From positions 21,028-85,027 of the forward strand of contig CAZJVN010000001.1 in NCBI GenBank assembly GCA_964549775.1: 64,000 nucleotides of DNA, in the 5' to 3' direction. Under the pieces are notes generated by a model. That model worked only from the letters and a program-made list of their open reading frames with translations, had not been told where the DNA came from and did no database searches. This document shows positions 2,927 to 31,257 of the stretch, piece after piece (the first letter of the stretch is position 1; every line of letters starts with the position of its first letter). The stretch comes from an uncultured archaeon. GTDB lineage: Archaea; Iainarchaeota; Iainarchaeia; Iainarchaeales; JAAZKV01. The translations under genes were made by a program, and so were the position numbers.

Positions 2927-2953
2927 ATTAGTTGGTTCAAAGGAGGAATTAGT

Positions 2954-3172: not shown

Positions 3173-3391
3173 ATGAAACCAGTTAAGAGTATAAAAGTAG
3201 GATCAGTTGAGGTTGCGGTTTGGGAGAACTCTTCAAAAGAAGGAAACAAGTTCTTTACAACAACTTTGAATAGAAATTATAAAGATAAAGAGGAATGGAA
3301 AAAAACCGATTCTTTAAGAGTGGATGATTTGCCTAAAGCAATTTTGGCTCTTGAAGAGGCTTATCGTTTTTCAGCAATAAAAGAAAGTTAA
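3173..3391 (+). CDS. Small hypothetical protein (72 aa), possibly a PC4/YdbC-like (DUF2128-like) ssDNA-binding fold
   Basis: GGAGGaattgttATG RBS. Sequence ..VEVAVWENSSKEGNKFFTTTLNRNYKDKEEWKKTDSLRVDDLPKAILALEEA has the beta-sheet + C-terminal helix layout recalled from YdbC/PC4-like proteins. Assignment is from memory only. Confidence 0.45.
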   Translation: MKPVKSIKVGSVEVAVWENSSKEGNKFFTTTLNRNYKDKEEWKKTDSLRVDDLPKAILALEEAYRFSAIKES

Positions 3392-7030: not shown

Positions 7031-10000
7031 ATGGTTGGAAATGAGATTTTTCAAAAAATAACCACTTCTATTCAAAATTTTTATTACGCTTTAGAAGACA
7101 AATGGTACAATGTTCTTGACAAAATTGATCCAAAAGTACCAGTATACAAAATAATTGACCCAATTGACAAATTTGTTCCAAGTTTTGTACTATTTTTACT
7201 TTTTTTATTTTTTCTAATCTTACTTGCAGGATATTTAATTAGATTTTCTTCTCCCTACGAAGTAACTTTCACTATTAGTGATGCAAGTAATAACACAAAA
7301 CTTTCAGGAGTACAATTAAGTGGAGCAATTAATGAAAATGAGTTCAAACAAGTAATTACGGACAGTAAAGGAATAGCAACTGTTCAAACAATTGGATCAA
7401 AAAAGAATTTTTATGATATTTTAGCAGCAATCTTTTTTGGAAGTAAAGATCTTTTTATCGCACAGCTTTCAGTAAAAAAAGAAAATTATGTTCCTTGGGA
7501 AAATAAAATTGTTACTTTAGAAGGAAAAACTTATGAAATTGCTTTAAGTAAAGTTCCACAAGAACCTGTAAAATTTAAAGGGGTTGCAGTTGTTGAATTA
7601 TTAGATAAAGATACTCTTCAAAAAATAGTTGATCTTACTGGTTCTTCTTTTATTCAATATGATTGTAAAAACATAAAAATTGCAGGAGCTCCAATAACAG
7701 TTAAAGATGATAGTGACGGAGCAATTGATGGTTCATTTAAACTTGCAAAAGATAATTGTGAATTTATTATAACTAATGCGAGTGCTCCTGGATACGAGTC
7801 TTTAGGAATTTCAGTAAACCTCGACCCTACAAAAGATAAGCACAAAATTTCTTTACAAAAACAATCAGCTGATGAGGGGATTGCTAATGTTTTTGTTTAT
7901 GAATTAAAAGGATCAGAAAAAAAAGCAATTCCCGGGATAAAAGTGTTTTTTAATAAAATTAACACTAATGATTATTCTTTTACTAATAGTTCAGGGGTTG
8001 CACAAAAAACTTTAACTACAGGAGAATATGTAATAACAATTAATGATGAAAATTATTATCCAATAACTCAAACTTCAAACAAAAAAATCATTATTACAAA
8101 AGCCTCTTCTTCTACAATTGAAATTCAATTAACCTTTTTACCCCTAGCTCTAAGAAGATATGTTTACTTTAAAGTAATTGATTCAAACAGTCTTGCAATA
8201 GCGAATGCAAGTGTGTCTTTGATCGAATTACAAAAAGATAAGAATGGAAATTATTTTGGTGCAGATCTCAATTCAAACACAATTCATTACACTCCACTTA
8301 TAACAAATCTAACTGACACTAATGGTTTATTTAGACAACATGGTTTTACTGATACTAACATAAAAGTAATTGCGATTGTTAAAAAAGCTGGGTATTTAAA
8401 TAAAGTATTTTTAGCACAAATAGTAAAATACGATGCAACTTATGAAGTTGTAACTTTAGAAAAATTAGTTCCAGAAAATACTGCTTCTGCAAATATTATT
8501 GTTAAAGAAAAAGATACTAACAAAAGTATTTTTGGAGCAAATGCTTACTTATATTATTCTGCAACAATTGGAGGAGTATTTATAAAAAATATTCCAATAA
8601 CTCAACAAGGAGTAAAAACTGATTATTTAGGGAACGCAAAATACCAATATTTGATTCCTGGAAATTATTCTGCAGGAGCAGATGTAGAAAATAATTATTT
8701 TTCAGGAATTAGTGAAGAAAAATTCATTGATATTAATCAAACAAAAGATTTCAATATATTTGTTAAACTAAATGCAAGTTTGATTTCTTTTAGATTAATT
8801 AATGCTGTTACAAAAAACCCAATAGTTGGAATTATTGAAGTCTACTATTTGAGTGGTTCTTCAAAAGTTCTTATTGAAACTCTAACTACTACAAATAGCG
8901 GATTTGTTAAAAGTAATTTTGCTTTCAAAAAAACTGATAATTTATATTTAGTTGGAAAATCACCAGGGTACGCTAATGGATTTATGTACCATAATGGAAG
9001 TAGTTATCCACTTGCTATTGGCGAAAATAATTTTAGTGTTAAATTGTACCCAAAAAGTGCACTTGATTATAACAATGGAGGTCCTAGTGAAAGGAATACT
9101 TATACCATAGATAATAACCAGCTTTGTTTGAAATCTCCAACAGAAAATAGATGTTTAGACATAACTAACTTAAATGAGAATTATTCTAATGGAATAAAAG
9201 TTGGAAATTTTAGTTGTAATTTACAAACAGATAACTCAATTATTTGCAATAATAATTTGAGGTATTATTATTCTTCAAGAGTGAATATGTTTTTTGATAA
9301 TATTTATTCAACAACTGATAACCATCTTTCAGGATACTCTACTGCAGATTCTTTAGAGCCCGGAAGTTCTTATTCAGCAGTATTTGATGTAGTTGTAGAC
9401 GGAAATGTAAGTTACAGTGAATTATTGTCAATGATTCGACTTGAAGGGGCTGGAAAAATAACAAACATTTTGCCAGACATTTCTCCAAGAACTGGTCAAT
9501 TTGGACACAAATGTGATAACTCTTCACTAGATGGAAACATTAGAACTAGACCTGACAGTTATTATTATCCTACAAGCAGTAGTTGTAATTCTATTGGTGG
9601 AACAGATTCAATAATTGCAAGCATTAAGTGGGCACAAAATCCTTTACCAAAAGGGTCTTATACAGTTAGAGTAAATTTTAAAATAAATGCGAACTCTGAT
9701 GATGAACCATTAAATTTTTATTATCGAGCTAAAGAAAAGAGTCAAAATGGTTCAACTGAAACACTTTTAATGAGTAGACAATTTACTGTTGGAGAAATTT
9801 TAGGAACCGGAATTTATTATAGAATAAATAATAATGGGAAAAATATTATTGTTAAAGAGTCAAGTAATATTAGTTCAAACAATAGATTACTATTTGTTGA
9901 AGACGATGTTAACCCGTTAAGAATTTCTTTAATTAACAGACTTGAAAATTCTCTCTCAAATGCTACACTAACTCTGTATTCTTATTATGGAGATCCTTCT

Positions 10001-12127
10001 TCATTTAATATTTCTTCAAATGGTTCAGGAGATTTATTTTTTGGGTCAGACAAATTGAAAAAAGTTGTTCTTGGAACAAATATTAATTTACCTTCAAAAA
10101 CAAATCAAGAATTTTCTGTTAATGGGTACATTAACAAAAATAGTTCTTCTTGGATGGTTTTAACTCTAACTAGTGGTTCAGCAAGAATTAGTACTGTTTT
10201 TGTAATGGTTACAAGTGAATCAAGTTTATTAGAATTAAAAGATGCTTGCTTTTTAGCAGGAGTAAGTGGACAAGATTTGTACTTAAGATTTGGAACAAAA
10301 TACGGACAAGACAGTATTAGTATCCCAAGTGCAGAAATAAACATTTACAAGAATTGTGATACTGCTCCAAGATCTTTTTCAGAGCAAAAATTAATCCAAT
10401 CAAATACTGGTTCAATTAATACTACTCTTGACGAAAATAAAAGTTATGTTTATGGAAAAGATTGTTTGGAATATAAAATAAATGCTAAAGAGGGAACTTA
10501 TATTTATCCCGAACTTAGTGGAAAAATAATGGCTGGTTCTTGTGGGACTCCTGATCCTGAACTTGCTTGTCTTAGTGTTGATTTGATTTATGAAAATCAA
10601 AATGAAAGTCAAGGATTAATTACAATGGATTGGGACAAGAAAGCAACTATGAGAATTTCAAATCGTTCTTGTTCTGGACCAATAGATGTTGTAATTGAAA
10701 GTGGACTTATTTGTAAAATTGATGGTAAAAATTGTACTGCTCCAACCACAATTAATCAAAAAGCAACAAAAGATTTTGAAATAACTTCAAAGAATGTTAA
10801 TTATATTCCAAGTGAAATGCCAAACTTTAGTGATGTTTTAGGATATTACCCAGTGTATGTTAAAGCTAAATTAACTAATAATCCAAGAAAAGTTTATTCA
10901 ATCGCTAAAACAACAAATATTAGTATCTATAATAGTAAAAGTTGTTTTGCAATTTCAAAAGATTACTTTGATTTCCTTTCTTCAAACGAAGATTCTCCTT
11001 TCGAACTAAAAAATGAATGCCAATACACTTTAATTGGAGATTATTTTGTTCCAAAAGCAAATCTAAGTGCATTTGGTTATGATTTAAATTTAAACATTCC
11101 AATTTACTCAACAGTTCAATTTAAACCTAAACTTTTTATCACTGGTGCACCTTACCGAGTAGAGCAAAGAACTGAAACAGTTTCTTATTGGTTAAATAGC
11201 AAAATTATTGAGGATAGTGAAATTGAATCAGTTACAGTCCCTGGAGAAGATTATGTTAGATATGAAACTTATAATTTTGATTTAACTCAAACTCAAGGAA
11301 AAACTGATAAAATAAAAATAAAATTCAAGGACTTTAATTTTGATATTTACGATTTTGAGGAAGTAACCTCTTCTTTTGATGGAGGCTACCAATATTCAAG
11401 ATTTGCTTATGGGATGGCAATTGACGGAAATATTAAAGTTACTTTCAAGGATGGAAATTCAATTTTTATAAAACCTAGTAAAAATTTTAACATAACTAAT
11501 GCGCCAATTTGTACAAATGTTTCCGCTGAAAACAATGTGGAAAGTTGTAGAATAATTAATTCATTTTTAGACACTACTGAAGACAGGGTTGAAAAAGATA
11601 AAAACTTTGTGAGTGGAGAGTTGATTATCAAATTACCTACAAAGAAAACAATTGATTATATTGATTTTAATATTATTGGTAATCCCATCATGAGTAATTT
11701 AACTGTTAGTTTAAGCACTTTCCAATCAATTGACATGAATATTCCTTATTATGTATTAACAGATACTGATGTAAATTATACTATTGATTTAATCGACAAC
11801 AATAAAGAAATAGCTGCTATTGAAGGAATAGAATACTTAATCAAATCGTTTGATGACATAAACGCTTTTAGAAGCGGAATATTTTCTTCATTACACAATC
11901 CAAAAGTGTACATTATTTCAGGAAATCCTTTAGTTTCTGTTTGGATTGAAGGAGATTTAGTTAAAGCAAAATTCGTTGGACAAGACGTTGCACGATTTAA
12001 TAATGGAAAAATTGACGCTACATTAATTCAAGATTTTGCGCAAGGAAATAGTTTAGGGATAGTTGAAATTACAGATTATGTTTATCAAGTTCCAGGAAAA
12101 ACAATTAGTGGGGTTAATCAAAATTAA
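7031..12127 (+). CDS. Giant (1698 aa) membrane-anchored extracellular protein, probable cell-surface / S-layer-like or adhesin protein
   Basis: About 50-aa N-terminal segment then one hydrophobic helix (FVLFLLFLFFLILLAGYLI). The rest is N/S/T/Y-rich with dozens of N-x-S/T sequons and scattered Cys pairs. No enzymatic motif. Confidence 0.75.
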   Translation: MVGNEIFQKITTSIQNFYYALEDKWYNVLDKIDPKVPVYKIIDPIDKFVPSFVLFLLFLFFLILLAGYLIRFSSPYEVTFTISDASNNTKLSGVQLSGAINENEFKQVITDSKGIATVQTIGSKKNFYDILAAIFFGSKDLFIAQLSVKKENYVPWENKIVTLEGKTYEIALSKVPQEPVKFKGVAVVELLDKDTLQKIVDLTGSSFIQYDCKNIKIAGAPITVKDDSDGAIDGSFKLAKDNCEFIITNASAPGYESLGISVNLDPTKDKHKISLQKQSADEGIANVFVYELKGSEKKAIPGIKVFFNKINTNDYSFTNSSGVAQKTLTTGEYVITINDENYYPITQTSNKKIIITKASSSTIEIQLTFLPLALRRYVYFKVIDSNSLAIANASVSLIELQKDKNGNYFGADLNSNTIHYTPLITNLTDTNGLFRQHGFTDTNIKVIAIVKKAGYLNKVFLAQIVKYDATYEVVTLEKLVPENTASANIIVKEKDTNKSIFGANAYLYYSATIGGVFIKNIPITQQGVKTDYLGNAKYQYLIPGNYSAGADVENNYFSGISEEKFIDINQTKDFNIFVKLNASLISFRLINAVTKNPIVGIIEVYYLSGSSKVLIETLTTTNSGFVKSNFAFKKTDNLYLVGKSPGYANGFMYHNGSSYPLAIGENNFSVKLYPKSALDYNNGGPSERNTYTIDNNQLCLKSPTENRCLDITNLNENYSNGIKVGNFSCNLQTDNSIICNNNLRYYYSSRVNMFFDNIYSTTDNHLSGYSTADSLEPGSSYSAVFDVVVDGNVSYSELLSMIRLEGAGKITNILPDISPRTGQFGHKCDNSSLDGNIRTRPDSYYYPTSSSCNSIGGTDSIIASIKWAQNPLPKGSYTVRVNFKINANSDDEPLNFYYRAKEKSQNGSTETLLMSRQFTVGEILGTGIYYRINNNGKNIIVKESSNISSNNRLLFVEDDVNPLRISLINRLENSLSNATLTLYSYYGDPSSFNISSNGSGDLFFGSDKLKKVVLGTNINLPSKTNQEFSVNGYINKNSSSWMVLTLTSGSARISTVFVMVTSESSLLELKDACFLAGVSGQDLYLRFGTKYGQDSISIPSAEINIYKNCDTAPRSFSEQKLIQSNTGSINTTLDENKSYVYGKDCLEYKINAKEGTYIYPELSGKIMAGSCGTPDPELACLSVDLIYENQNESQGLITMDWDKKATMRISNRSCSGPIDVVIESGLICKIDGKNCTAPTTINQKATKDFEITSKNVNYIPSEMPNFSDVLGYYPVYVKAKLTNNPRKVYSIAKTTNISIYNSKSCFAISKDYFDFLSSNEDSPFELKNECQYTLIGDYFVPKANLSAFGYDLNLNIPIYSTVQFKPKLFITGAPYRVEQRTETVSYWLNSKIIEDSEIESVTVPGEDYVRYETYNFDLTQTQGKTDKIKIKFKDFNFDIYDFEEVTSSFDGGYQYSRFAYGMAIDGNIKVTFKDGNSIFIKPSKNFNITNAPICTNVSAENNVESCRIINSFLDTTEDRVEKDKNFVSGELIIKLPTKKTIDYIDFNIIGNPIMSNLTVSLSTFQSIDMNIPYYVLTDTDVNYTIDLIDNNKEIAAIEGIEYLIKSFDDINAFRSGIFSSLHNPKVYIISGNPLVSVWIEGDLVKAKFVGQDVARFNNGKIDATLIQDFAQGNSLGIVEITDYVYQVPGKTISGVNQN

Positions 12128-12190
12128 TTAAAAAAAGCATGATTAAATAGACATTAAGTGATATATGTTAGTTATTGTTTTGGTGAAAGA

Positions 12191-13858
12191 ATGTTAAAAA
12201 AGTATATTGTTTTGTTGTTAGCAATTCTGCTAATCTGCCCAGTAATATTTTCGCAAGACAATAATAACACTTACTGGGATGGATTTATTAAAATCCATTT
12301 AGATAAACCTGAATTTGATTTAAATGAAAACATTACTGGAACTCTAACTGTAAACAATTTAGAAAATTACCCCCTACTTGGAGGAAAAGTAATTTTAAAT
12401 ATTGCTCAAGGGGAATACAGTTATCCTTCAGAATTTAATAAAAGCAATATTGTTTATGAAAGCACTATTGATTCAATTTGGAGTTTACCAATTTATTCCA
12501 ATGTAATAAATTTTTCTTTACCAAGTCAAGCAAGTGGGGAATATAGAGTGGACGCTTATTTTGAAGTAGGAAAATCAGCTCTTTCTGGATCAAACAATAC
12601 TTTACTAGGTGCAGTTTGGAAAAACTTTTCAGTAAAAGGAACTGATAAAAAAAGAGTGATAATTGATAGAGAAAAAACTTTTTTTGGAGAATATAATGTG
12701 GGGCAAAGAGGCTTTTCTGTTAATAGTGAAGAAAGCGTATCGGGAAAAGTTGTTGTAAAAAATGAATCTAGTGAAAGAAAAACTAATTTAGAGTTATTAA
12801 TTAGTTTTTGTGATTGGGATGTGAGTTATTGTAATACTGAAACAAAAGCAAATAAGTTTACTATTGATTCTATTGAAGCAAATGAAGAAAAAGAAATACA
12901 AGTTGATCTAATTGCTCCAAGTAAAGCTTCACAATATGAAATTAACTTGAAAATTACTAGTGGGGAGTTTATTGAATCAATTTATAAAAATCAAGTAAAC
13001 GTTAATGGAGAAACTGCGAAAATAAAAAAGATATTTATGACAGGACTTGAAAATAATGATTATTCATTTAATGCTCTAATTATTGGAAATACTACTCAAA
13101 CAAATTCGACATTAAATAATTTCATAACAAAATTAGTGTTATTTAGAGAAAATTCAATAGTTGAAGAGTTGACAGAAAATATTGGGACAATGAGTAATGA
13201 TGAATTGATTAAAAAGAATTTCAAAATTAATTCTAGGGACTTTGATAAAGTTTGTTTAACAATAGAAAAAGGAACTGAATTAATAGATGAAGAATGTTTT
13301 AATGTTAATTTAATTGAGTTAACAAAAGCTCATGAAATTAGATTTCCAAATTTTGTTAATGTAGTTTACAATTATGATGAAAAAAATGAAACATTATCAA
13401 TTACTCTAAAGAAAAATGTGATTAATTCAAGAGTTAGAATTATTTCAAAAAGCGAAGTATTATTTGAAGAAGAAGTTTTAGAACAATCAAACATTTATTC
13501 AAAAAGTATTTCTTTACCAAAAGTGACTGCTCAACTTGTAGTTGATGATTGGGATGCAAAAAGACAACAAGTATTTGATTTAGTACTAGACGAAACAGTT
13601 GATGTTAGAGAAACTAGTGAAGTCACTTTGGAAACTAATCAATATATTTGTCAAGAAAACCTTTGTACTGAAGGATTTACTTGTTCAGGAAAAAGTTATG
13701 AAGCAATTGGTGGGATTTGTTGTTTAAGTGAATGTGTTCCTGAGTCAAAAATAGGAAATTCAGAGCTAGTACTACCTTTAATATTTTTTATTGCAATAAT
13801 TATTTTAATAATAGCAGTGTTTGTTATAAGATCAACAATTAAGCGGGTGAAAAAATGA
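12191..13858 (+). CDS. Secreted protein (about 555 aa) with N-terminal signal peptide and C-terminal TM anchor plus basic tail
   Basis: Likely start ATG 12191 (MLKKYIVLLLAILLICPVIFSQ, signal peptide). C-terminus has a Cys-rich patch CQENLCTEGFTCSG..GGICCLSECVP, then LVLPLIFFIAIIILIIAVFVI-RSTIKRVKK. 30-nt gap after the previous gene. Confidence 0.7.
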   Translation: MLKKYIVLLLAILLICPVIFSQDNNNTYWDGFIKIHLDKPEFDLNENITGTLTVNNLENYPLLGGKVILNIAQGEYSYPSEFNKSNIVYESTIDSIWSLPIYSNVINFSLPSQASGEYRVDAYFEVGKSALSGSNNTLLGAVWKNFSVKGTDKKRVIIDREKTFFGEYNVGQRGFSVNSEESVSGKVVVKNESSERKTNLELLISFCDWDVSYCNTETKANKFTIDSIEANEEKEIQVDLIAPSKASQYEINLKITSGEFIESIYKNQVNVNGETAKIKKIFMTGLENNDYSFNALIIGNTTQTNSTLNNFITKLVLFRENSIVEELTENIGTMSNDELIKKNFKINSRDFDKVCLTIEKGTELIDEECFNVNLIELTKAHEIRFPNFVNVVYNYDEKNETLSITLKKNVINSRVRIISKSEVLFEEEVLEQSNIYSKSISLPKVTAQLVVDDWDAKRQQVFDLVLDETVDVRETSEVTLETNQYICQENLCTEGFTCSGKSYEAIGGICCLSECVPESKIGNSELVLPLIFFIAIIILIIAVFVIRSTIKRVKK

Positions 13859-16560
13859 ATTACAAAAAAATAACTTTAATATTTTTCACTTTAATTATTT
13901 TTATTTCTTTAATAAGTTTTTCTCTGGCCTGGTATGCTACAGGTTGTGCAGGTTCTGGTGGGTGTAGAAATGTTTGTAACACTGGAGGAAATGGAAATAG
14001 AAATTGTTGTTCAGGAAGGAATTGGGTTTATTGTGAAGATCATGATGATGGATGTGGAAGAAATGATAACAAATGGATGTATAATATTCTTCAAACAAAC
14101 TCTCCATTATGTGGAGGTGGAGGAACTCCTGACACCGGACCAGTTTGCCCAGGAACTGGCGGTTGTGTTAATTTGGGTATTGTAAATGTAGACCCGGTTA
14201 GGGTAACTACTGAACAATGCCTCATCTCAGAAAATATGACTTTGAATGGAACCACATATTCTTTATTTGGAACTCCTGGATTTAGTTTAACTTTAACTGG
14301 ATTTGATTATTTTAAATGGGACCCTTCAGGAAACACTAAAACATTTTATATGTTAAATATAACTTCAACTACTGATTCAACAAAAAAAGTTTGGAAAACT
14401 AATGTTGCAAATAACGGACCATCAGTAAATTCAACAAAAAGAGCATGCACCACTGACGGTGCTGGATGTACTGTTGCCGGCCATTCATTAGGACAAGGAA
14501 CTTTCCCAAGAATAACCTATGTTTTCACAGACAATAATATAGGAGGTTTTAATTATAATTTAAGTAGAATTGCTAACTCTATACCAGAAACATTTAATTC
14601 CTGGGTGGGACCGGCCGGAATTGTTTCTGAAAAAGAATCGAATGTTTACATTGGCCTTCCTTCATTAGTAATTATGGGACCAACTGATGTTAATACAGGT
14701 TTTTTTGAAAAAAGTGGACAATATGAAAAGAAATTATTTTTCAACTTAATAAACACCTCTCCGCTAGACCTAAATTTAGAAAATTATAGACTAATTTGTA
14801 ATGGGGTCGGAGTAAGTTGTAGTATGGATCCAAATTATGCCGGATTTCAAATACCTAAATTAAATGGAGATTTAATTTTAACTGGAACTTTAAGAGTAGA
14901 CAAAAATAAGTTACCTACTACAGTTGGATTTGTTCTTGATGTTAATTATACTGTTCCTGCATTAAAAGATAAAGATTGTGGGGATTATTATACAGGAAAA
15001 ATTAGTACCTCTCTAAAACCAACTTTATTAAAATTGGGTTTAATGGATAAACAAAAATTCCAAGTCGGATTAATTTCAGAAAGTGATTCAACAAATTGTG
15101 TTGGAGAAAACGGAATGATAGGACAAACAGGAGAAGATTTTGTCCCAAGAGTAAATGTTGGATTTGGAGGAACCATTGATTCAAACAAAAAATTAATTTC
15201 TATTAATGAATGTGATACTTATGATATTAATGGAAGTCCTAATCCAAATTGGGTTTATTGTTCAAGAAAAGAATTTTTAGTTGAACTTGCAAGAAAAATT
15301 GACATTGCTTGGACAATACAAAAAACAATTAATGATTACAAACAATCGCCAAGTACTAGTGATGATTTACTAATAGAAGATTTAGAACTAGAAAAACAAA
15401 AATACTTATCGTTTGAAACAAATATTAGAAAACAATCTTTGTCAAAAGAAAATGTTTTAGCTTCAATAACTAATTTAAATTCAATACTTAATTCGCTAAC
15501 TGTTCAAACAGGTTTAGAAAATTTTGGAACACAAGATAAAATCAAACAAGCTACAAGATTAACAAATTTGTTTTCAAATGTTAATTTTACCTCTCTTGGC
15601 GGAGAGTATTTTGGAGAAATGCCTACTGGGACTTACAAAGTCAATATAAAATTGAGAGACATGAACATTAATACTCCTGATTTGTTTGAAACTGACGATA
15701 AATTGAATCCAAAGATTTCAATAAGTGTAGACTTTAGTACTTTACCAGTTGCACCAGAACTTAATTGGTTCTTTTATGATTATGCTGATGAAGATTTTAG
15801 CACTTTAACTAGCAAACCTCAATTAAACAATTTTAATAGTGTAAATATTATGAATAGGGGAAAATTATTTTCAATTAATCATGATCCAAATAACACCTCA
15901 CCAAGATTTGATTATAATTTTTACCCAAATTATGCTGTCCCTCTTTTTGTTAGATTAAAAACTGACACAAACGGAGATATGAACAATACTTTTTCTACAA
16001 ACATTACCGAACCTATTTATAATTTTAGTTATTGGACTGGATTTGCAAGTAGTTCTGAAGATGGATGTGAAAATATTGCTTCAGAGGAATTAACCACAAA
16101 TTCTGCTTTAATGCCTTATAGAGAAAGTGATTCTGTGAAGACTTTTGGTTCAAACGACTTTTATTTTCCTCAATTTGAGAACAACAAACCAAATAGTACA
16201 ATTTATTTAGAAACTATTTTGTTCTGGCCAAGCACAACAAATGATACAAAAACCATTAATTCACCTTTTGAAATTTACACCAACAATAATTTAAATAATT
16301 CAAAAAACAATGTGATTGTAAATAATATTGTTGAAACTGGAGAAAATAGTTTTTACATAAACAATATTGAGAGAATGTTTGATGCAATTAAAGATGAAAA
16401 GGTTTGTGTATACCAAGGAGTTAGTGCTGTTACAACTAATTGGACTTTGTTTTGGAATACAAAAAAGATTTATGATTCTATTAGTGACCTTAAGATAAAT
16501 GTAATTGAAGAAAATGATGATGCTACTATTTGTGAATCAAGAGAAGCACTTGGTGGATAA
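13855..16560 (+). CDS. Large (901 aa) secreted/surface protein with Cys/Gly-rich N-terminal module
   Basis: Start overlaps previous stop (ATGA). N-terminal TM/signal then CAGSGGCRNVCNTGGNGNRNCCSGRNWVYCEDHDDGCGRN..CGGGGTPDTGPVCPGTGGC, followed by an N/T/S-rich body with many N-x-S/T sequons. Confidence 0.7.
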   Translation: MNYKKITLIFFTLIIFISLISFSLAWYATGCAGSGGCRNVCNTGGNGNRNCCSGRNWVYCEDHDDGCGRNDNKWMYNILQTNSPLCGGGGTPDTGPVCPGTGGCVNLGIVNVDPVRVTTEQCLISENMTLNGTTYSLFGTPGFSLTLTGFDYFKWDPSGNTKTFYMLNITSTTDSTKKVWKTNVANNGPSVNSTKRACTTDGAGCTVAGHSLGQGTFPRITYVFTDNNIGGFNYNLSRIANSIPETFNSWVGPAGIVSEKESNVYIGLPSLVIMGPTDVNTGFFEKSGQYEKKLFFNLINTSPLDLNLENYRLICNGVGVSCSMDPNYAGFQIPKLNGDLILTGTLRVDKNKLPTTVGFVLDVNYTVPALKDKDCGDYYTGKISTSLKPTLLKLGLMDKQKFQVGLISESDSTNCVGENGMIGQTGEDFVPRVNVGFGGTIDSNKKLISINECDTYDINGSPNPNWVYCSRKEFLVELARKIDIAWTIQKTINDYKQSPSTSDDLLIEDLELEKQKYLSFETNIRKQSLSKENVLASITNLNSILNSLTVQTGLENFGTQDKIKQATRLTNLFSNVNFTSLGGEYFGEMPTGTYKVNIKLRDMNINTPDLFETDDKLNPKISISVDFSTLPVAPELNWFFYDYADEDFSTLTSKPQLNNFNSVNIMNRGKLFSINHDPNNTSPRFDYNFYPNYAVPLFVRLKTDTNGDMNNTFSTNITEPIYNFSYWTGFASSSEDGCENIASEELTTNSALMPYRESDSVKTFGSNDFYFPQFENNKPNSTIYLETILFWPSTTNDTKTINSPFEIYTNNNLNNSKNNVIVNNIVETGENSFYINNIERMFDAIKDEKVCVYQGVSAVTTNWTLFWNTKKIYDSISDLKINVIEENDDATICESREALGG

Positions 16561-16566
16561 AAAAAT

Positions 16567-17364
16567 TTAAACAAAAAGCGCTAAGTAAATTAAAAATAGT
16601 GCTAGAACTATTATAAGTAAAATTATTGTTTTTGTTGAAAAGAAACTTAAATCAATTTTTATTTTTGGAATAATTCTTTTAGATTCATTACCTTCTTCAT
16701 TTTTATCTTTTTTTGTAATAGATTCTTTTGTATCTGAAAAGAATTCTTTAGTATAAACTAACCAATTTTTTGGTTTTTTTAAATCGCTAAGAGTGCTTTT
16801 TGTTAATTCCACAATTCCTTTTTCTCTACTAGGAATTTTTTCTAACCCTTCAATTTTTTCATCAACTGCATTTATTTTTAAGTCAAATTCACTTTCGCCC
16901 ATCTTTATTTTTGTTAAATAAAAACCCAAAAGTACTTTTCTTACACTAGTAATTATTACGTTTTGTTTTGGAACATCAAAATAGTCTGCAGTTTTTAGTT
17001 GTATAACTTCGTGTTGTTGTTTTCTGTCAATATTATTCCATTTTTCTTCAAATTTTTCTTTAGGTATTGTTTGAATTGATTTTTTCCAAGTGTATTTAAT
17101 TAAATCTGTAAGTTTTTCTTCGATTTTTATTTTGTGTGCATTTATTACAAGTACTCCATCATGAGTTTCGTTTATTACTCCTTTAGCACTATTTTTGTGT
17201 TCAGTATAATAGTGATAATTGTATAAAAGATAAGGCACTAGAATTAGTGTTGGTTTTTCTATTTCAAACTCGTGCCAATCTTTTTTTTCTAATGCTTCTT
17301 TTATTTTTTGATTTATTTTAGGTATTGAAGCATTTAAGGGTAACAATGGATTACTTAAGTACAT
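16567..17364 (-). CDS. Hypothetical tail-anchored membrane protein (265 aa), co-directional with and immediately downstream of SepF
   Basis: Soluble K/E-rich body and a single C-terminal TM (TIILLIIVLALFLIYLALFV) at the extreme C-terminus. 20-nt gap to SepF. Confidence 0.5.
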   Translation of the reverse strand: MYLSNPLLPLNASIPKINQKIKEALEKKDWHEFEIEKPTLILVPYLLYNYHYYTEHKNSAKGVINETHDGVLVINAHKIKIEEKLTDLIKYTWKKSIQTIPKEKFEEKWNNIDRKQQHEVIQLKTADYFDVPKQNVIITSVRKVLLGFYLTKIKMGESEFDLKINAVDEKIEGLEKIPSREKGIVELTKSTLSDLKKPKNWLVYTKEFFSDTKESITKKDKNEEGNESKRIIPKIKIDLSFFSTKTIILLIIVLALFLIYLALFV

Positions 17365-17383
17365 GCATCCACTGTCCTCTTAA

Positions 17384-17713
17384 TTATTTTTTCTTAATTA
17401 TTTTTACTTTTGCAGGAGTAACTAAAAGTCTTTCTTGAGAGATTGCTGCCATGTCTCCGTCAATCTTTTTTATTTCTCCTTTTATTATTGAAATTAATTC
17501 TCTTAATTTAGTTGCGTTTCTCTTTTTCAAATCTGCTATATTTACTAAAACAATGTTTCCTGCTTTTGCTTCGTTTATTACTGCAGAAGCATCTGCTTCA
17601 ACAATTAAGTCCATTGGTTTAACAAATGCATCAGCATTTTCGTAAGATTCCTCTTCAACTTGATCCATATTATTTAATACGTCTTCTAAGTCAACTGACT
17701 CAGGTTTTGCCAT
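17384..17713 (-). CDS. sepF: Cell division protein SepF homolog (DUF552)
   Basis: Core ..DLIVEADASAVINEAKAGNIVLVNIADLKKRNATKLRELISIIKGEIKKIDGDMAAISQERLLVTP matches the SepF domain pattern (..KaGn.V.vNl..l......R.iDfl.G...algG.i.kI.e..fLftP). ATG at 17713 is preferred over the listed GTG at 17743. Confidence 0.7.
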   Translation of the reverse strand: MAKPESVDLEDVLNNMDQVEEESYENADAFVKPMDLIVEADASAVINEAKAGNIVLVNIADLKKRNATKLRELISIIKGEIKKIDGDMAAISQERLLVTPAKVKIIKKK

Positions 17714-17743
17714 TACATTACTAAAAAAACCCAAAATAACCAC

Positions 17744-18020
17744 CCCGCTTTAAAAGCGACTCTAATACATCTCCTTATACAAAACATATAAAAAGCTCTC
17801 GTTGTTAAGTTTGGATTTCAAACTCTAAAGGTATTAATCAAAGTAAATACACATATTAGTGGAAGTTTTAGTGATTGACTAGCACTTCCATTAATAATTA
17901 TTTGTTTTAAGAATTAATTTATTGTAAATTGTTTATTTTGTTGAAAATTATTTTAATAAAAATTATTTTAGAAAAAATTATTTATTATAAATTATTTTTT
18001 TATGTTGGGGGCGAAGAATT
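17744..18020. other. Candidate chromosomal replication origin (oriC): ORB-like inverted repeat + extreme-AT unwinding element directly upstream of orc1/cdc6
   Basis: 17860-17890 tGGAAGT-N17-ACTTCCa inverted repeat (resembles the GTGGAA core of archaeal mini-ORBs). 17808-17824 AGTTTG-gattt-CAAACT palindrome. 17891-18000 is about 110 nt with about 6% GC, containing four imperfect tandem about 14-nt A-tract units (aaaattattttag..). GGGGG at 18006-18010. Confidence 0.35.
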
Positions 18021-19229
18021 TTGGAAAATATTTTTGAAAAACAATTACTTAAGGGAAGCGTTTTTTTAAATAAAGACATTATTTCTCCTCACCACATTCC
18101 TGATAAACTTCCTTTTAGAGAAAAACAAATTGATTCAATCACTCACTCTTTAGGTCCAGTGCTTAATAATTCTAAACCAAATAATTTATTTGTTTATGGT
18201 AAAACTGGTAGCGGAAAAACTTCTACTGTTAAACATGTTTTAGAACAACTTGATGAGTTTGTTAAAAAGAGGGAGATGAATGTAATTAATTGTTATGTTA
18301 ATTGTAGGAGTCACTCTTCAAAGTACAAAATTTTACTTAAAACCTTAAGAACTCTTTATCCTGAAAAAGAATTTTTAGGGTACAGTTCTTCTTTTGTTTA
18401 TGAAAAAACTTTAGAGTATTGTAGTCAAAAAAAATCTCATTTAATTTTAGTTCTTGACGAGATTGATAAAGTAAAGGATGTTGATGATTTAGTTTATTCT
18501 TTGAGTAGGGGAAATGATGAACTTGAAACGGGTTCAATTACTTTAATTGGTATCTCAAATAATTTAATGTTTAAAGAAAAACTTGATCCTCGTACTAGAA
18601 GTTCTCTTTGTGAAAGAGAAATGGTTTTTGACCCATATAATGCTACAGAACTTAAAGAAATTTTGAGTGAAAGATCAAAAATTGCTTTTAAAGAAGGGTG
18701 TGTTCTTGATTCTGCAATCTCTCTTGCCGCTGCTTTTGCTGCACAAGAATCAGGGGACGCAAGAACTGCAGTAATGTTACTTCAAAGAGCTGGAGAAATA
18801 GCTGACCTTTCACAAAAAACAGTGGTGACTGATGCTGAAGTTTCTAAAGCTAAAGCAAGCGTGGAAGAAGAAATAATTTTATCAATGGTTTCAACACTAC
18901 CAATGCAACAACAATTAGTACTTTATTCAATCGCACAAATGACTACTCAAAAGAAAGGGGTAAAAAAAGTTACGGGAGAAATCGAAGAGGGAGTATTGTT
19001 TAGTGGAGAAATATTTGAAACCTACCTTGATCTTGCAAAAAAATTCAATGAAACTACTATCACTAGTCGATGGTATCGTCAATACATTAACGAACTTGAA
19101 ATGTATGGACTTATCCTTGTAACAAATTCTGGAAAGGGAATCAAAGGACAAACAAGATTAATTAAACTTGGTTTTGATGCTACAAAAATTAAAACTGCGC
19201 TTGAAAGAGAATTATTCAAGAAAGATTAA
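18021..19229 (+). CDS. orc1: Orc1/Cdc6 replication initiator (AAA+ ATPase + C-terminal winged helix)
   Basis: N-terminus ..HIPDKLPFREKQIDSITHSL.., Walker A YGKTGSGKTSTV, Walker B ILVLDEID, sensor/WH region. 402 aa. Confidence 0.9.
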   Translation: MENIFEKQLLKGSVFLNKDIISPHHIPDKLPFREKQIDSITHSLGPVLNNSKPNNLFVYGKTGSGKTSTVKHVLEQLDEFVKKREMNVINCYVNCRSHSSKYKILLKTLRTLYPEKEFLGYSSSFVYEKTLEYCSQKKSHLILVLDEIDKVKDVDDLVYSLSRGNDELETGSITLIGISNNLMFKEKLDPRTRSSLCEREMVFDPYNATELKEILSERSKIAFKEGCVLDSAISLAAAFAAQESGDARTAVMLLQRAGEIADLSQKTVVTDAEVSKAKASVEEEIILSMVSTLPMQQQLVLYSIAQMTTQKKGVKKVTGEIEEGVLFSGEIFETYLDLAKKFNETTITSRWYRQYINELEMYGLILVTNSGKGIKGQTRLIKLGFDATKIKTALERELFKKD

Positions 19230-20009: not shown

Positions 20010-23000
20010 TTAAGCAAATTCAAATAGCGATTTTTGTTGTACAGTGTCACTTTTGAATACTGAATCTATTTCTTTTTCAACCATGTCAAGTCTTTGGATT
20101 AAATATGAAGATAAATTTTCCTGTCTTGCAATATTTTGAGCAATTTTTAAGTATTTACGAACTGAACCTTCATGAATTGTTAAAATCAAAGAAGACTTTC
20201 CACATTTGTAACATTTTCCGCTTAATGGTATTCTTCTATAAATTTCGTTACATGCAGTGCATCTAAATGTTTGTCGAGAAAATGCTCTTGCATTTCCAAT
20301 AATGTCTGGCAAGAAGTGTGAAACCATTACTCTTTCAAGAGCGTCTTTTGAGTCAACCGCCATTATTTTTTTCTGTAAATTGTTTTGTCTTTGTAGTTTT
20401 TCATCCATTGTTTTTAGTTGAATGTATCTTGACATTTTTGGTCCTTCATCAAACAAATCTGTTTCATGAGTGTAACCTAAACCAGAGTATTGTTCTTTTT
20501 TATCTAAAATTTCTTTTACTGTTTTTATTTCTTTTATATTTGGTTCGCATATTTGTAAAGATTTTTCATAAAGATCTAAAGGATAACTCCAACAGGTTTC
20601 CATTTTGTGTACTTCATCATCAACTTCGGAAGGATCCATTTTTCCCCCACTTCTATTTGCTAAAAACTTTTGTGAAAAATTTAGTAAACCATCCATTAAA
20701 AGAATTACAGAATCTTGATCCCCATCAACGTTTCTTCTCTTTGCGCAAACAAAATAAGGGTGACCAAATCCAAGTCTTGCTTTTGTGTAACCTATTACTC
20801 TTGATACTACTGACGCTGAAGTGTGAGGCGCAAGTCCTAAAACTATCTCTCCAATTAAATCCTCTTTTGTTTTTGCGTTATAAAATCTTTCAACCCCATA
20901 ATATTTTTCAAGCAAATCATCAATAAATTTACTCACTTGAAGCATCCAATCTCCACAAGTATCATTTACAATAATGTCTTGCGGAAAAATTTCTATTATT
21001 TGATCAACAGTAGTTATTTCTTTACCGAAAATGTCTGTTTTGTATCCAAGTTCTTTTATTTTTTCTATTGATAAATTAATTTCTTTTGGCTTGAAGTGTG
21101 TGATTGTTGCATTTAGTAGTTCAAATCTTGAAGTACCATCTCTAAAAATATGAACATCATGTTTTGCTCGAAGTATTCCTTTTTCTAATGGTTCAATTTC
21201 TTTTGCATCAGAAATCATCCCCTTTACTCCTTTAATTAAATCTGGCAAAGGTTCACGAAGATTACTCTTAGCTTTTTCAAGTTCTATTCTTAAATTAAAT
21301 TCGTGTTCTCCTGAAAAAAATGTTTTATTTCCACAACTAGGACATTTATCTGCAAGTACACTTTTTTTACACTCTTTACAGTAGCTCATTAATTTTGTTC
21401 TGACCTTACATTCTTGACAATAAGAGTGGAAAGATTTCTTTTTGCATTTTGGGCAAACATATTCTGCAATTTCTGCAGAAACATTCCCTGTTTCATTATT
21501 GTACTCATCAGTTGCTTTAATTATACTCCTTGTACTTCCACCTTTGAGTCCAATTGGGTAAAGTACATGCGGGTTACCTATCATTTTTCTTGGTTTTGCT
21601 TGTTCAGGTCTACCCATTCTTCCACCAACAAAAGACCCTGCTTTATCTCTTATTTTCATCTCGGAAATTTCTGATAAATAATCAAGAACAGTGTTTGCAG
21701 TAGAATCTTTTTCTTTTTTATCTAAAGCGAAAGTTTGAATTATTGACTCTCCAAACTCGCCAATTAAAATTTTTCCTTGTTTTAATTTATGAGGCAACCC
21801 AATCTTTTCAAGTAGTTTTTTTACTTCAAGATTGTTTTCAACAAGTAATTTCTTCTCATTACTCTCTTCAAGAATTTCACATTTTAATAATTCTTGTCTT
21901 AAAAATTTTACCTCTTTTTCATTTAATGCTTTGTAAAAATGAATATAATTGGGGTGAAGAGAAACACCAGTTGTCCTAGAAATTGCGATTGATTGTTTTT
22001 GTGTAACTGTTCTTGGATTTTTTATTATTTCATCTAAATTAATTTTTTCTCCAAGTTCTTTTTCTAACTTTAACTCGAGTTCTTTTTTTTCTTTTGTAGC
22101 AATAATATTTTTTAGTTCCTCTAACCACCATTCTTCACAATAACCCACAGGCACTAAGGGGTGAGAGGTTTTCTTAAAATCCCCATACGTTGTTAGTATG
22201 TCACCTAAGTAAATAATTTTGTCTACTTGTGCTTTAACAATTTCTGCTTTTTCTTTTGTATTTATTCTTTCAACTGATCCGTCTTTTAGTAAAACTATTG
22301 GACCTTCAATCGTAGTGCATGGAAAAAATTGTGTTGCTTTTCCAGGCCTTTCCATTCGACCGTGTGTTCCTACTGCAATAAATTCATCAGTTAGTATCAT
22401 TGTTCCTGGATTAATTGCTTTTGCCATTATTCCTGTATTTCTTCCCCTTCCGTATCTCAATCTAAATCCTCCCCAAGTACTTGGGTAAGCTAGTATTGGT
22501 CTCCCTGCAGCAAGTCTGTCAAGAAATGCACGGTTTGGTTTTACCTCAATTTTTGTTTGAGTTTTTTCAACTTTAGCTATTTTTTCTAAAAAACTCCAAT
22601 CAAGTCCAAGAGACTTTGCAGTCTCCATTACCCACATTGCTTTTAGTGCAAGTCCTTCAGAAATTACTAGCCCCATTCCCCCACGAATTCTATTTGTTGG
22701 AATTCTTTGTAAATCTCTATGCGCTGAAACTTCAAGTAATTCTGTTGGAACTCCATTTACACAAACTGGGCACCCTCGAATAATTATTCTTATTTCTTCA
22801 TCTTTCATTGTGTATTGTCTTGAAATTACTTCAGTTTGGTATAACCCTATTTCTTCAACATATCTTTCTATTTCATCTTCTGTTGGTTTGTATCTATCAA
22901 GTCCTAAATATTTTCTAGCAAAGTCTGCAAGAATTAATGGAATAACTGTTGAAGACCCTCCAGCTGCACGAATGGGTCCTGCAAAATAAAGATCAATATA

Positions 23001-23453
23001 TTTTGAGCCGTCAGGATTTCTATTTATTTCAATTTTTGGTATTCCATCAAGCGGAGCTACAACTACTCCTTCTGTTTCTATTAGTAGACAAGCTTTGATT
23101 GCAATTTCTACTCTTTTTTGTTCATCAGGAATACTCCACCATTTTTGTGCAAGAATTTCTTCAAATAATTTAAAGTACGCTTTTCTTCTATTTGGTTCTT
23201 CAAGAGCAAGTTCTCTAAATCTTTGAGCAAGCCCTTTTAATCCAATAATTGTTTCTGCTCGATCTGCTAAATCAAGTGCAGGAATTATTTCAACCGAATC
23301 GTTTATGTCAATTCCTTTTGATTTTGCTTTTTGTGCAAGCAAGTATCCTTTTTTTGTATGCTCTTGGAGTAGTTTGAAATATTCTTTTACGTGTGTTTCT
23401 GCCGGAAAAGGAACTTCTTTTTCCAAAAGCGAAATTGTTTCTTCATTATTCAT
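20010..23453 (-). CDS. DNA polymerase II (PolD) large subunit DP2
   Basis: 1147 aa. Characteristic DP2 blocks and C-terminal Zn-finger clusters (CPKCKKKSFHSYCQECK..CKECKK..CPSCGNK; CTACNEIYRRIPLSGKCYKCGK). Length is consistent with an intein-free DP2. Overlaps DP1 by 8 nt. Confidence 0.9.
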   Translation of the reverse strand: MNNEETISLLEKEVPFPAETHVKEYFKLLQEHTKKGYLLAQKAKSKGIDINDSVEIIPALDLADRAETIIGLKGLAQRFRELALEEPNRRKAYFKLFEEILAQKWWSIPDEQKRVEIAIKACLLIETEGVVVAPLDGIPKIEINRNPDGSKYIDLYFAGPIRAAGGSSTVIPLILADFARKYLGLDRYKPTEDEIERYVEEIGLYQTEVISRQYTMKDEEIRIIIRGCPVCVNGVPTELLEVSAHRDLQRIPTNRIRGGMGLVISEGLALKAMWVMETAKSLGLDWSFLEKIAKVEKTQTKIEVKPNRAFLDRLAAGRPILAYPSTWGGFRLRYGRGRNTGIMAKAINPGTMILTDEFIAVGTHGRMERPGKATQFFPCTTIEGPIVLLKDGSVERINTKEKAEIVKAQVDKIIYLGDILTTYGDFKKTSHPLVPVGYCEEWWLEELKNIIATKEKKELELKLEKELGEKINLDEIIKNPRTVTQKQSIAISRTTGVSLHPNYIHFYKALNEKEVKFLRQELLKCEILEESNEKKLLVENNLEVKKLLEKIGLPHKLKQGKILIGEFGESIIQTFALDKKEKDSTANTVLDYLSEISEMKIRDKAGSFVGGRMGRPEQAKPRKMIGNPHVLYPIGLKGGSTRSIIKATDEYNNETGNVSAEIAEYVCPKCKKKSFHSYCQECKVRTKLMSYCKECKKSVLADKCPSCGNKTFFSGEHEFNLRIELEKAKSNLREPLPDLIKGVKGMISDAKEIEPLEKGILRAKHDVHIFRDGTSRFELLNATITHFKPKEINLSIEKIKELGYKTDIFGKEITTVDQIIEIFPQDIIVNDTCGDWMLQVSKFIDDLLEKYYGVERFYNAKTKEDLIGEIVLGLAPHTSASVVSRVIGYTKARLGFGHPYFVCAKRRNVDGDQDSVILLMDGLLNFSQKFLANRSGGKMDPSEVDDEVHKMETCWSYPLDLYEKSLQICEPNIKEIKTVKEILDKKEQYSGLGYTHETDLFDEGPKMSRYIQLKTMDEKLQRQNNLQKKIMAVDSKDALERVMVSHFLPDIIGNARAFSRQTFRCTACNEIYRRIPLSGKCYKCGKSSLILTIHEGSVRKYLKIAQNIARQENLSSYLIQRLDMVEKEIDSVFKSDTVQQKSLFEFA

Positions 23454-24972
23454 TTATTTCACGCTCGGTCGCTTCTCTTAAAAACTGCATTTCTACAATT
23501 TTTCTATTTTTTAAATTAATTATTGGAATCGCACAAGGAGTAGGTACGTGACCTATTTTTTTTTGAAAATCACTTTGTGCTTCCCAAGTTCCAGTGTTAA
23601 GAATTGTTGTTCCTCTATAAGTTGCATAACCATTACAGTGCATATCTCCAAACCAAACAAGATCCGGTTCTTCTTTAATCACCATATAATCTTTTTTTTC
23701 AGGAACGTAAGGATTTTTCCCACCATACTTTGGCATCAAGTCTCTTTTCTTTAATAATTCTATCATCCCTTCTTGGGGCTTACTCATTTCAAGAAAACTA
23801 ACTGAACTAATAAGATCATGTACACTTGGCCCGTGGTAAACCAAATTTTTTAGTCCTTCAGTTTCTATCCATGAAGGAGAGGAAATAAAATGAAAATTAC
23901 TTAATTTGCTTAACCTTGGAACAAATTCTTTATCTATTCCTGGTTGAGGTTCTGCTCTTCTAACCGCATCATGTTGTCCAGGGCAAATAAATACTTGAAT
24001 GTATTCTGGAACTTGTAACATAAAATCTTCAAATCTTTCATACTGTGCGTAAATATCTTTTATTATTAAGTCATCATATTGTCCAGGGTAAACTCCAATT
24101 CCTGAAACATTATCTCCATTAACAAAAAGGTATTGTATTTTTCCAACTTTTTCTTGTTGTTTTTGTGTTAATCCTTTCCCGTTTAAATAATCAAAAAATC
24201 TTTGTAATTGTTCTTCATAACAAAGTTTACTCCCAATGTGAAAATCACTTACCCCGCAAGAATAAATTTCTTCATCTAAAAGTTTTGTTGGTCTTATCGG
24301 TAGGTCCGGCCAATATACTTCTTTAATTATTATAAAATCGTCTCCAACTTTTGCACCCTTAATCCCAACTACATTATCTTCCAATATCCTTTCTGCTTTT
24401 TTCATTATTTCTTTGTCTTTTTCCATTACAAGTGCAATACATTTTGTTTCAAGATCTTCAATCTCGTAAGCAATATGTCCTTTTTTAGTGGTCCATTTTC
24501 TATTAACTATTCCAATCACATCAACTGATTCATTTTTTGGTCTTGATTTTAATTCTTTTATTGGAATTGGAGAAAGGTTGTGTCTTTGTTTTAACATTGT
24601 TGAAAGCAAATCAAATTTGCTTCTAAATAAACGCAGAAAATCGTCAACCGTTCCACTTGACACACTTTTCCCAGTAACATCATTCTCTTCCATTACTCTA
24701 AACTCTGGTTTTCTTTCACTAGCAAAAGCAACAAAACTTTTTTTTATCACTTCAACTTTTTCTGGAGCCACTTGTGATAATTTTGTTCGAGAAAGTTTTT
24801 TTTCTAAAAGCAGTGGTTCAAGAACAAACACTCCCTCAGCACTAAATTCTTCTAAAATTTCTTTCCAGTTATCTTCTTTTGAAATTAATTCAATAGATTC
24901 TTTTGATAAAATTAGTCCTAGATTTTCCGCAGTAGAAAATACTTCTTGAGTTCTTGAGATATCTTTTAGCAA
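23446..24972 (-). CDS. DNA polymerase II (PolD) small subunit DP1 (OB fold + calcineurin-like phosphoesterase/exonuclease)
   Basis: 508 aa. MPP-type motifs (GDxHIG.. ; GDMHCNGYATYRGTTILNTGTW) and upstream OB-fold region. Operonic with DP2. Confidence 0.8.
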   Translation of the reverse strand: MLKDISRTQEVFSTAENLGLILSKESIELISKEDNWKEILEEFSAEGVFVLEPLLLEKKLSRTKLSQVAPEKVEVIKKSFVAFASERKPEFRVMEENDVTGKSVSSGTVDDFLRLFRSKFDLLSTMLKQRHNLSPIPIKELKSRPKNESVDVIGIVNRKWTTKKGHIAYEIEDLETKCIALVMEKDKEIMKKAERILEDNVVGIKGAKVGDDFIIIKEVYWPDLPIRPTKLLDEEIYSCGVSDFHIGSKLCYEEQLQRFFDYLNGKGLTQKQQEKVGKIQYLFVNGDNVSGIGVYPGQYDDLIIKDIYAQYERFEDFMLQVPEYIQVFICPGQHDAVRRAEPQPGIDKEFVPRLSKLSNFHFISSPSWIETEGLKNLVYHGPSVHDLISSVSFLEMSKPQEGMIELLKKRDLMPKYGGKNPYVPEKKDYMVIKEEPDLVWFGDMHCNGYATYRGTTILNTGTWEAQSDFQKKIGHVPTPCAIPIINLKNRKIVEMQFLREATEREINE

Positions 24973-31089: not shown

Positions 31090-31257
31090 ATCAACTAACT
31101 TAATTAGTTAAAACTAATTTATATAACTTATACTATACAAAAAATTAGTGAAAAAAATAGTTTTCGTAGTGAAAAAATTTTAAAAAATCTGTTAAAAGAA
31201 ATAGATTTAGAGAAATTAATTTAATTAATTAAATCTAATTAACTTAATTTAACTAAA

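Follow-up and report, generated by a model that had tools for sequence, protein, structure and literature searches.

Known archaeal origins and the Iainarchaeota locus

Chromosomal replication origins of archaea usually adjoin an initiator gene and combine origin recognition boxes (ORBs) with an A+T-rich region (PMC4010727). In a benchmark, experimentally verified origins were adjoined by 70.7% of initiator genes, and in operational terms a putative oriC is by convention an intergenic region that adjoins an initiator gene and carries ORBs (Ori-Finder-Arch preprint). In the canonical functional unit two ORBs in inverted orientation flank a duplex-unwinding element (DUE), as in Sulfolobus, where a DUE of ~130 bp lies between ORB2 and ORB3, neither of which is dispensable (PMC12141716). 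The literature searched reports no experimentally characterised replication origin from a DPANN archaeon. Here we describe a candidate origin in a 64-kb stretch of DNA (29.9% GC; the window) from a DPANN archaeon of the Iainarchaeota, or Diapherotrites. The element in question is the 277-bp intergenic region at 17744-18020, which separates the divergently transcribed genes sepF, on the minus strand, and orc1/cdc6, on the plus strand.

This intergenic region is, in our assessment, probably an orc1-adjacent chromosomal replication origin with lineage-specific ORB-like boxes, and by the criteria of the field it would be a "Type I" putative oriC: it adjoins an initiator-type orc1 gene, contains at least two copies of a region-specific conserved repeat and includes an A+T-rich stretch that could serve as a DUE. 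The region was compared with 80 loci from Iainarchaeota whose Orc1 orthologs have 57-93% identity, covering 6 kb on either side of orc1 at each locus, to give 81 loci with the window (relatives are cited by L numbers where they must be told apart, and the window as WIN). The nearest homologs of the window Orc1, like all 80 compared loci, belong to the Iainarchaeota/Diapherotrites.

Inverted repeat and conserved boxes upstream of orc1

The original prediction had singled out an inverted repeat, TGGAAGT-N17-ACTTCCA, within the intergenic region, and this exact core is found at 17860-17890. It forms part of a longer repeat with arms at 17854-17872 and 17878-17896, complementary at 16 of 19 positions and separated by a 5-nt gap; inverted repeats of equal quality occur at just 4 places in the 64 kb. 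Folded as plus-strand RNA or DNA, the segment at 17850-17900 reaches -20 kcal/mol (z = -6.9, with none of 200 shuffles equal), which ranks third among 42,634 51-nt windows on both strands (top 0.02%). A position weight matrix (PWM) scan places two top-scoring boxes 28 bp apart, one in each arm (A1 and A3, Table 1), and in an alignment of WIN with L001-L003 both boxes are invariant while the spacer varies.

Both copies are instances of a conserved box of ~10 bp, TTAGTGGAAG(T), termed box A, which recurs upstream of orc1 across the phylum. In its strict form, TA[GC][TC]GGAA[GC]T, the box is matched 40 times, in 37 loci, in the 300 bp preceding orc1, as against 9 times in ~880 kb elsewhere, an enrichment of ~170 times. 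Pairs of boxes 8-40 bp apart are ~120 times denser upstream of orc1 (51 pairs, in 46 of the 81 loci) than elsewhere (14 pairs). No other recurrent box cluster was found within the 6 kb on either side of orc1 in the 80 loci, including the loci that lack box A and including DP1. Scans of IMG/VR gave no match for the distant-clade form of the element on viruses or plasmids; the sole IMG/VR match to the window-type pattern lies within a phage open reading frame (ORF) of 2269 aa and was set aside as a chance match.

The arrangement of the boxes differs by clade. The window and L001-L003 (group i) have an inverted pair with a spacer of ~17 bp; L004-L022 (group ii) have box A, a second, direct GGAAG box 14-16 bp further on, and an inverted partial box (CCAGTA/CCACTA); and in L023-L027 (group iii) two or three copies stand in direct orientation at a 14-bp period, an arrangement that was detected independently by Tandem Repeats Finder (TRF). 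Group iv, 29 genomes in which Orc1 identity to the window is 57-64%, has a tight inverted pair with a 9-bp spacer, ATTA-SY-GGAAG-TGGTTYR-CTTCCACAACTC. A protein-binding site typically looks like this, with one box used in direct or inverted orientation at a fixed spacing and with the spacer sequence free to change. The inverted repeat is the form taken in the window by a pair of predicted protein-binding boxes with an ORB-like half-site, a pair that is orc1-specific and found phylum-wide.

We regard it as scarcely credible that the palindrome and the low-complexity A+T DNA merely coincide by chance in a genome of 30% GC. Intergenic DNA is generally A+T-rich, four other tandem arrays score at least 60, and to find a 7-bp inverted repeat by itself in 277 bp would be nothing unusual; but the extended repeat is exceptional within the window both in its quality and in its fold energy, and the boxes are orc1-specific and kept in at least 46 genomes that are otherwise unalignable in non-coding DNA, which refutes a chance origin for the boxes. 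For the exact form of the A+T array, chance is a possible explanation.

The repeat is also most unlikely to be an RNA hairpin, whether a small RNA or an element of the orc1 5' untranslated region (5'UTR). Such a function would fit the high stability of the plus-strand hairpin, the TATA-like box ~20 nt upstream of it, the T-runs that follow it and the position of the element in some relatives, where it would fall in the orc1 5'UTR. However, the 7-bp stem shows no covariation across 29 distant sequences, with all measures at or below shuffled values; four of its seven pairs are invariant, pairing at the two outer positions is lost in 17-20 of the 29, and the mismatches have no consistent strand preference (C.A in 13, T.G in 3). 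The direct repeats of L023-L027 are unable to form the hairpin, and in the distant clade the element lies upstream of a TATA-like box. Rfam gave no match either in a gathering scan of the window or in a scan of 17650-18100 at E <= 1. The absence of covariation, together with the change between inverted and direct arrangements by clade, points to a protein-binding DNA site rather than a hairpin.

Stable folds were also observed elsewhere in the window. The most stable 51-nt fold lies at 35086-35136 on the plus strand (-22 kcal/mol), in the intergenic region 35036-35238, and further very stable folds cluster in the non-coding segment 2777-3470 (for example 2887-3360, plus strand). Neither 35086-35136 nor 2777-3470 matches an Rfam family, and both may contain unannotated structured RNAs.

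The Orc1 initiator

The window Orc1 matches the TIGR02928 family with E = 1.3e-107. Its best relative of solved structure is Orc1-1 of S. solfataricus (2qby_A, E = 1.4e-75), followed by ORC1 of A. pernix (2v1u_A, E = 1e-59), and Orc1-3 and ORC2 match it much more weakly; by homology it is classed as an initiator of the Orc1-1 type. A glycine of the initiator-specific motif (ISM) and an arginine of the helix-turn-helix touch DNA in Orc1-1 (PMC3089459). Both the ISM glycine (Gly120) and the helix-turn-helix arginine (Arg350) are invariant across 34 homologs, and in the comparison of the window Orc1 the wing arginine of Orc1-1 is not kept.

We infer that Orc1 is the protein that binds the boxes, that replication starts at this site and that the A+T tract is where the duplex melts. 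In the proposed mechanism the Orc1-1-type initiator would recognise the two inverted ORB-like boxes, TTAGTGGAAGT, at 17854-17866 and 17884-17896, and bound Orc1 would recruit MCM to neighbouring, easily melted DNA, here the 110-bp tract of 6% GC at 17893-18002. Because the boxes sit within the orc1 promoter region, the same binding would probably feed back on transcription of orc1 and possibly on that of sepF.

An additional observation concerns the orc1 gene itself, which in two relatives (L028:4500-6010 and L031:4300-6010) is seemingly split by an intein in the Walker-A loop: the tblastn match starts at Orc1 residue 64, is preceded by ...IANGIISHN|TGK, and leaves an apparent "intergenic" gap of 1.4-1.7 kb.

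Comparison with the origins of Sulfolobus, Aeropyrum and Thermococcales

The candidate origin exhibits several similarities to oriC1 of Sulfolobus and Aeropyrum, in that it is intergenic and directly upstream of an Orc1-1-type gene, its recognition boxes are repeated and inverted with an A+T-rich region adjoining them, and the boxes overlap the promoter of the initiator gene. The layout differs from that of Sulfolobus, since just 17 bp separate the window boxes, with the A+T tract to one side of both. The boxes themselves are shorter, at ~10-13 bp as compared with 22-36 bp for the Sulfolobus and Aeropyrum ORBs, and lack both the G-rich ISM element and the TTCC/TTTC left half of those ORBs. A TG[AG]AA pattern is common to box A and the Sulfolobus mini-ORB (mORB), GATTTTCAGATGAAACG (PMC3089459).

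The locus also resembles the origin region of the Thermococcales. In oriC of Pyrococcus abyssi and P. furiosus the initiator gene adjoins the genes for PolD DP1 and DP2 (PMC1904270), as it does in the window, and the 13-bp Pyrococcus mini-ORB, TTCCAGTGGAACT, agrees with TATTAGTGGAAGT/AATTAGTGGAACT at 9-10 of 13 positions, including AGTGGAA (PMC1904270). The original prediction had called the core of the repeat ORB-like, and this description holds for the AGTGGAA(C/G)T that box A shares with the mini-ORB; it does not extend to the TTCC half, which is "perfectly conserved" in Pyrococcus and absent from the window box, or to the G-rich element. The Pyrococcus origin also has A+T-rich regions. It differs in its many mini-ORBs, its pair of 34-bp ORBs and a further cluster within dp1, as compared with two to three boxes in the window and no recurrent box in DP1; and in Thermococcales cdc6-dp1-dp2 are co-transcribed, whereas DP2/DP1 of the window are convergent with orc1. 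ORB sequences differ widely between lineages (PMC4010727, reviews), so that a TTCC...GAA dyad with a G-rich element is not a strict criterion for an ORB.

The A+T tract

The 110-bp stretch of ~6% GC that had been proposed as an unwinding element is present next to the boxes (Table 1), and the lowest GC contents in the 64 kb for windows of 60, 100 and 120 bp all fall within it (1.7%, 7% and 8.3%, respectively), the 120-bp minimum being tied with 33237-33356. The tandem A-tract units described earlier are likewise found within it, with a longer period than the 14 bp first given (Table 1). The tract is not alignable between WIN and L001-L003. Many relatives also have A+T-rich tandem arrays ahead of orc1, with units and periods that differ by genome. 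On this comparison the tract can be regarded as a lineage-specific accessory, the conserved signal being the pair of 10-bp boxes; it would probably act as a local, non-conserved unwinding aid at a site that probably also regulates orc1. For the calling of origins this carries a caution, as a striking A+T-rich "DUE" may be an accessory of one lineage.

Other A+T-rich intergenic stretches of the window lie at 33237-33356 (8% GC) and at 31151-31270 (12.5% GC, with a tandem array of 14 bp x 3.7 copies), and A+T-rich repeat tracts are therefore not unique to the orc1 region of this genome. Perfect tandem duplications were observed upstream of, or spanning, the orc1 start in L065:1060-1210 (59 bp x 2.5), L039:5710-5795 (29 bp x 2.9) and L078:5925-5965 (20 bp x 2). 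The region upstream of orc1 seems to be prone to repeat formation throughout the phylum.

Predicted promoter elements and box B

On the sepF side, the leader and promoter segment (Table 1) contains a small hairpin, CGCTTTAAAAGCG, at about 17747-17758, and by the archaeal TATA consensus the sepF TATA box would be CTTTTTATATG, on the minus strand at 17785-17795. Between this segment and box A lies a second palindrome, box B, which the original prediction had reported correctly. Of 77 loci, 13 have the full palindrome, GTTT[GA]-N3-7-[TC]C[AG]AAC, which shows a 47-fold enrichment upstream of orc1, as against only 3-4 times for its short half-site. Box B was accordingly rejected as a phylum-wide element, clear enrichment being confined to the full palindrome in those 13 loci. 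The TATA-like element that follows it (Table 1) is invariant in WIN and L001-L003, and the same module of box B, 7 nt and TATA is found ~35 nt before the orc1 start codon in loci that lack box A, such as L075 and L080; the TATA-like element is probably an ancestral or distal orc1 promoter.

Box B with its flank, AGTTTGgatttCAAACTC (17808-17826), resembles the Sulfolobus ucm element, TTATACAAAC, which is bound by the nucleoid protein UBP and is represented by the oligonucleotide GGTTTAATTATACAAACTC. A second resemblance to that oligonucleotide is seen in TTATACAAAAC at 17776-17786, overlapping the sepF TATA region. In Sulfolobus, ucm lies within the DUE between the ORBs, an arrangement that the window does not share. 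We take these resemblances as a lead only, since they rest on the short A+T-rich word CAAAC(TC) and may be coincidental.

Possible origin and operator functions of the boxes

The location of the boxes near the orc1 promoter invites the main alternative explanation, in which they are solely a transcriptional operator for orc1, and perhaps sepF, bound by Orc1 (autoregulation) or by an unrelated regulator; replication would then start elsewhere or without a fixed origin, and the A+T tract would be promoter or spacer DNA expanded by slippage. We consider this rather unlikely, though it accounts for much of what is observed. In every case the boxes overlap promoter elements and fall within ~50-260 bp of the orc1 start. 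The end of the cluster in L011, L014, L016, L022 and L023 is 6-22 nt upstream of the start codon and ~20 nt past a TATA-like box, which would place the cluster at the transcription start, and in the distant group the cluster is directly upstream of a T-rich TATA-like element. An operator would also fit a single cluster of two to three boxes with none flanking a DUE, and an A+T tract that is dispensable in many relatives.

Against a strict operator, the position of the cluster relative to TATA is not fixed, being downstream in the clade of the window and upstream in the distant clade, which would be unusual; on predicted promoter positions, some clades have the site overlapping the presumed transcription start and others have it ahead of TATA-like elements. 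In WIN, L001, L002 and L007 the cluster is 120-210 bp from the start codon, and the box resembles an ORB half-site that Orc1-1 orthologs bind. In characterised archaea, ORBs that overlap the orc1 promoter belong to the origin, and an operator function therefore does not exclude an origin.

Several observations nevertheless weigh against an origin at this site. Several clades have the boxes precisely at the orc1 promoter or 5'UTR, as a pure operator would also explain, and from the sequence evidence at hand an origin and a simple orc1 operator are indistinguishable. The inverted pair of boxes does not flank the candidate DUE: the boxes enclose 17 bp and the tract lies to their right, which departs from the canonical ORB(-)/DUE/ORB(+) layout. 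Beyond the A+T tract the PWM scan found no credible additional box, its matches there (7.1-7.3) being at noise level (137 such in the window). Among these far-side matches, those at 18017 and 18048 were rejected as extra boxes, being at noise level and overlapping the start codon and N-terminal codons, as was that at 18207, which falls within the Walker-A coding sequence. Compared with the dyad TTCC...GAA and its G-rich ISM element, only the (A)GTGGAA half of box A matches published mini-ORBs. Box A is missing from ~16-20 of the more distant Iainarchaeota, some of which have a sepF-orc1 spacer of 70-140 bp.

With a cut-off of 10% GC or less across 60 bp, just 13 of 27 close relatives have the A+T tract, to the right of the boxes in 5 and to the left in 8, and it is absent in ~14; the "textbook" DUE that had been proposed is a feature that varies between lineages. 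In L003, which lacks the tract at an Orc1 identity of 85%, the whole intergenic region measures 199 bp, its GC content never falls below 29%, and only ~30-40 nt separate the boxes from the start codon.

Strand asymmetry gave no signal of an origin either, as an operator would lead one to expect. Raw GC skew tracks gene strand, and skew at third codon positions was regressed on gene orientation and on side of orc1 for 628 genes from the 81 loci. Third-position GC skew shows no polarity switch at orc1 over these genes and the 6 kb on each side (t = -0.06), and the corresponding side effect for AT skew is small and not phylogenetically independent (t = 2.7); for the window alone the values are t = 0.08 and t = 1.2, respectively. 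Of the genes around orc1, 276 are co-directional with outgoing forks and 352 are head-on. As tests of an origin, GC skew and gene orientation are uninformative here.

The candidate oriC of the original prediction thus stands in part. It is supported by the Orc1-1-type gene, by the enrichment of the boxes and by the proximity of PolD, with DP2 within 6 kb of orc1 in 62 of the 80 loci; the flanking layout, the TTCC half and a skew signal are lacking. About one third of predicted Cdc6-type origins are also without the ORB(-)/DUE/ORB(+) pattern (Ori-Finder-Arch preprint).

A more specific proposal, which we put forward tentatively and consider doubtful in its full form, is that the origin of the Iainarchaeota, a DPANN phylum, is a minimal and non-canonical module. 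Two to three close half-ORB boxes, TTAGTGGAAG, with a 9-17 bp spacer or a 14-bp period, would make it up, lying beside any unwinding region rather than around it and within a bidirectional sepF/orc1 promoter, so that one Orc1-bound element would both fire the origin and couple expression of the initiator and SepF. If true, this module would be an origin architecture distinct from ORB(-)/DUE/ORB(+). The site would belong to the familiar kind of orc1-adjacent origin, and its atypical box geometry would matter only if confirmed. Box A provides a concrete sequence for Orc1 binding assays. The motif could also place origins in Iainarchaeota genomes of ~1 Mb, for which GC skew was without signal across the stretches analysed here, and a known origin is needed by methods that estimate growth rates from peak-to-trough read depth in metagenomes.

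Table 1. Coordinates of the predicted sites between sepF and orc1 and of the neighbouring genes in the window
Feature	Position	Strand	Remarks
sepF, cell-division gene	17384-17743	-	Pfam SepF, E = 1.8e-11; reads away from orc1
sepF leader and promoter	17744-17800	-	Near base-for-base in L001-L003, recognisable across the clade
Box B palindrome, AGTTTG-gattt-CAAACT	17808-17824		Read directly
TATA-like element, GTATTAAT	17831-17838	+	7 nt after box B; no change among WIN and L001-L003
Box A1, TATTAGTGGAAGT	17854-17866	+	ORB-like; left arm; PWM 15.4, top 5 in 64 kb
Spacer, 17 bp	17867-17883		Length kept, sequence free; contains a degenerate third box, TTAGTGATTG
Box A3, TATTAATGGAAGT on the minus strand	17884-17896	-	Inverted copy of box A; right arm; PWM 15.4
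A+T tract, 110 bp, 6.4% GC	17893-18002		Candidate DUE, probably also proximal orc1 promoter
Tandem array, 15 bp x 4.7 copies	17933-18002		TRF score 84, the maximum of the window
GGGGG, Shine-Dalgarno-like	18007-18011	+	Putative; 10-14 nt before the orc1 start; relatives have GGGTGG/AGGTGA
orc1/cdc6	18021-19229	+	TTG start; Pfam Cdc6_lid, Cdc6_C, AAA; TIGR02928
ORF, 242 aa	19249-19977	+	Between orc1 and PolD
PolD DP2	20010-23453	-	Pfam PolC_DP2 domains, E = 1e-90 to 1e-112; convergent with orc1
PolD DP1	23446-24972	-	Pfam DNA_pol_E_B; convergent with orc1

Gene neighbourhood of orc1

The replication genes that had been placed around orc1 are confirmed, SepF, Orc1/Cdc6, PolD DP2 and PolD DP1 all being identified by Pfam and NCBIfam, with orc1 ending at 19229 and DP2 starting at 20010. 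The true start of sepF is the GTG at 17743: the N-terminal MVILGFF helix that it adds is kept in relatives, and the internal ATG is missing in L004. The divergent sepF/orc1 pair is kept in 69 of the 80 loci. Such phylum-wide retention hints at coupled control of division and replication initiation, and raises the question of how the two are coordinated. In 55 of the 80 loci sepF is followed by a conserved protein of 265 aa, which has no family match and carries a C-terminal transmembrane anchor; the segment concerned in the window, sepF included, is 16567-17743.

The ORF between orc1 and PolD had been labelled kinase-like, a label for which Pfam and NCBIfam offer no match. Its N-terminus is protein-kinase-like, reading GHVGSGAESNVYAA...VVVKE, with the motif GxGxxSxVY...VVVKE. 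Homologs were found in just 6 of the 80 related loci, and the gene appears to be a fast-evolving or accessory one inserted between orc1 and PolD.

The placement of PolD differs between clades. In the clade of the window (L001-L031, L035, L044 and L063) DP2/DP1 are downstream of orc1 on the opposite strand, and in most of the distant genomes (L034-L080) they are upstream of orc1 on the same strand. The two arrangements are consistent with a single inversion of the block formed by the 265-aa gene, sepF and orc1, candidate origin included, relative to DP1-DP2, separating the two clades.

No tRNA was found in a tRNA scan. Beyond sepF, the plus strand of the window carries three successive large ORFs at 7031-16560 (1698, 566 and 901 aa), oriented head-on toward the candidate origin. 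The 566- and 901-aa ORFs have no Pfam match, and the 901-aa ORF is kept in 26 loci at 26-44% identity.

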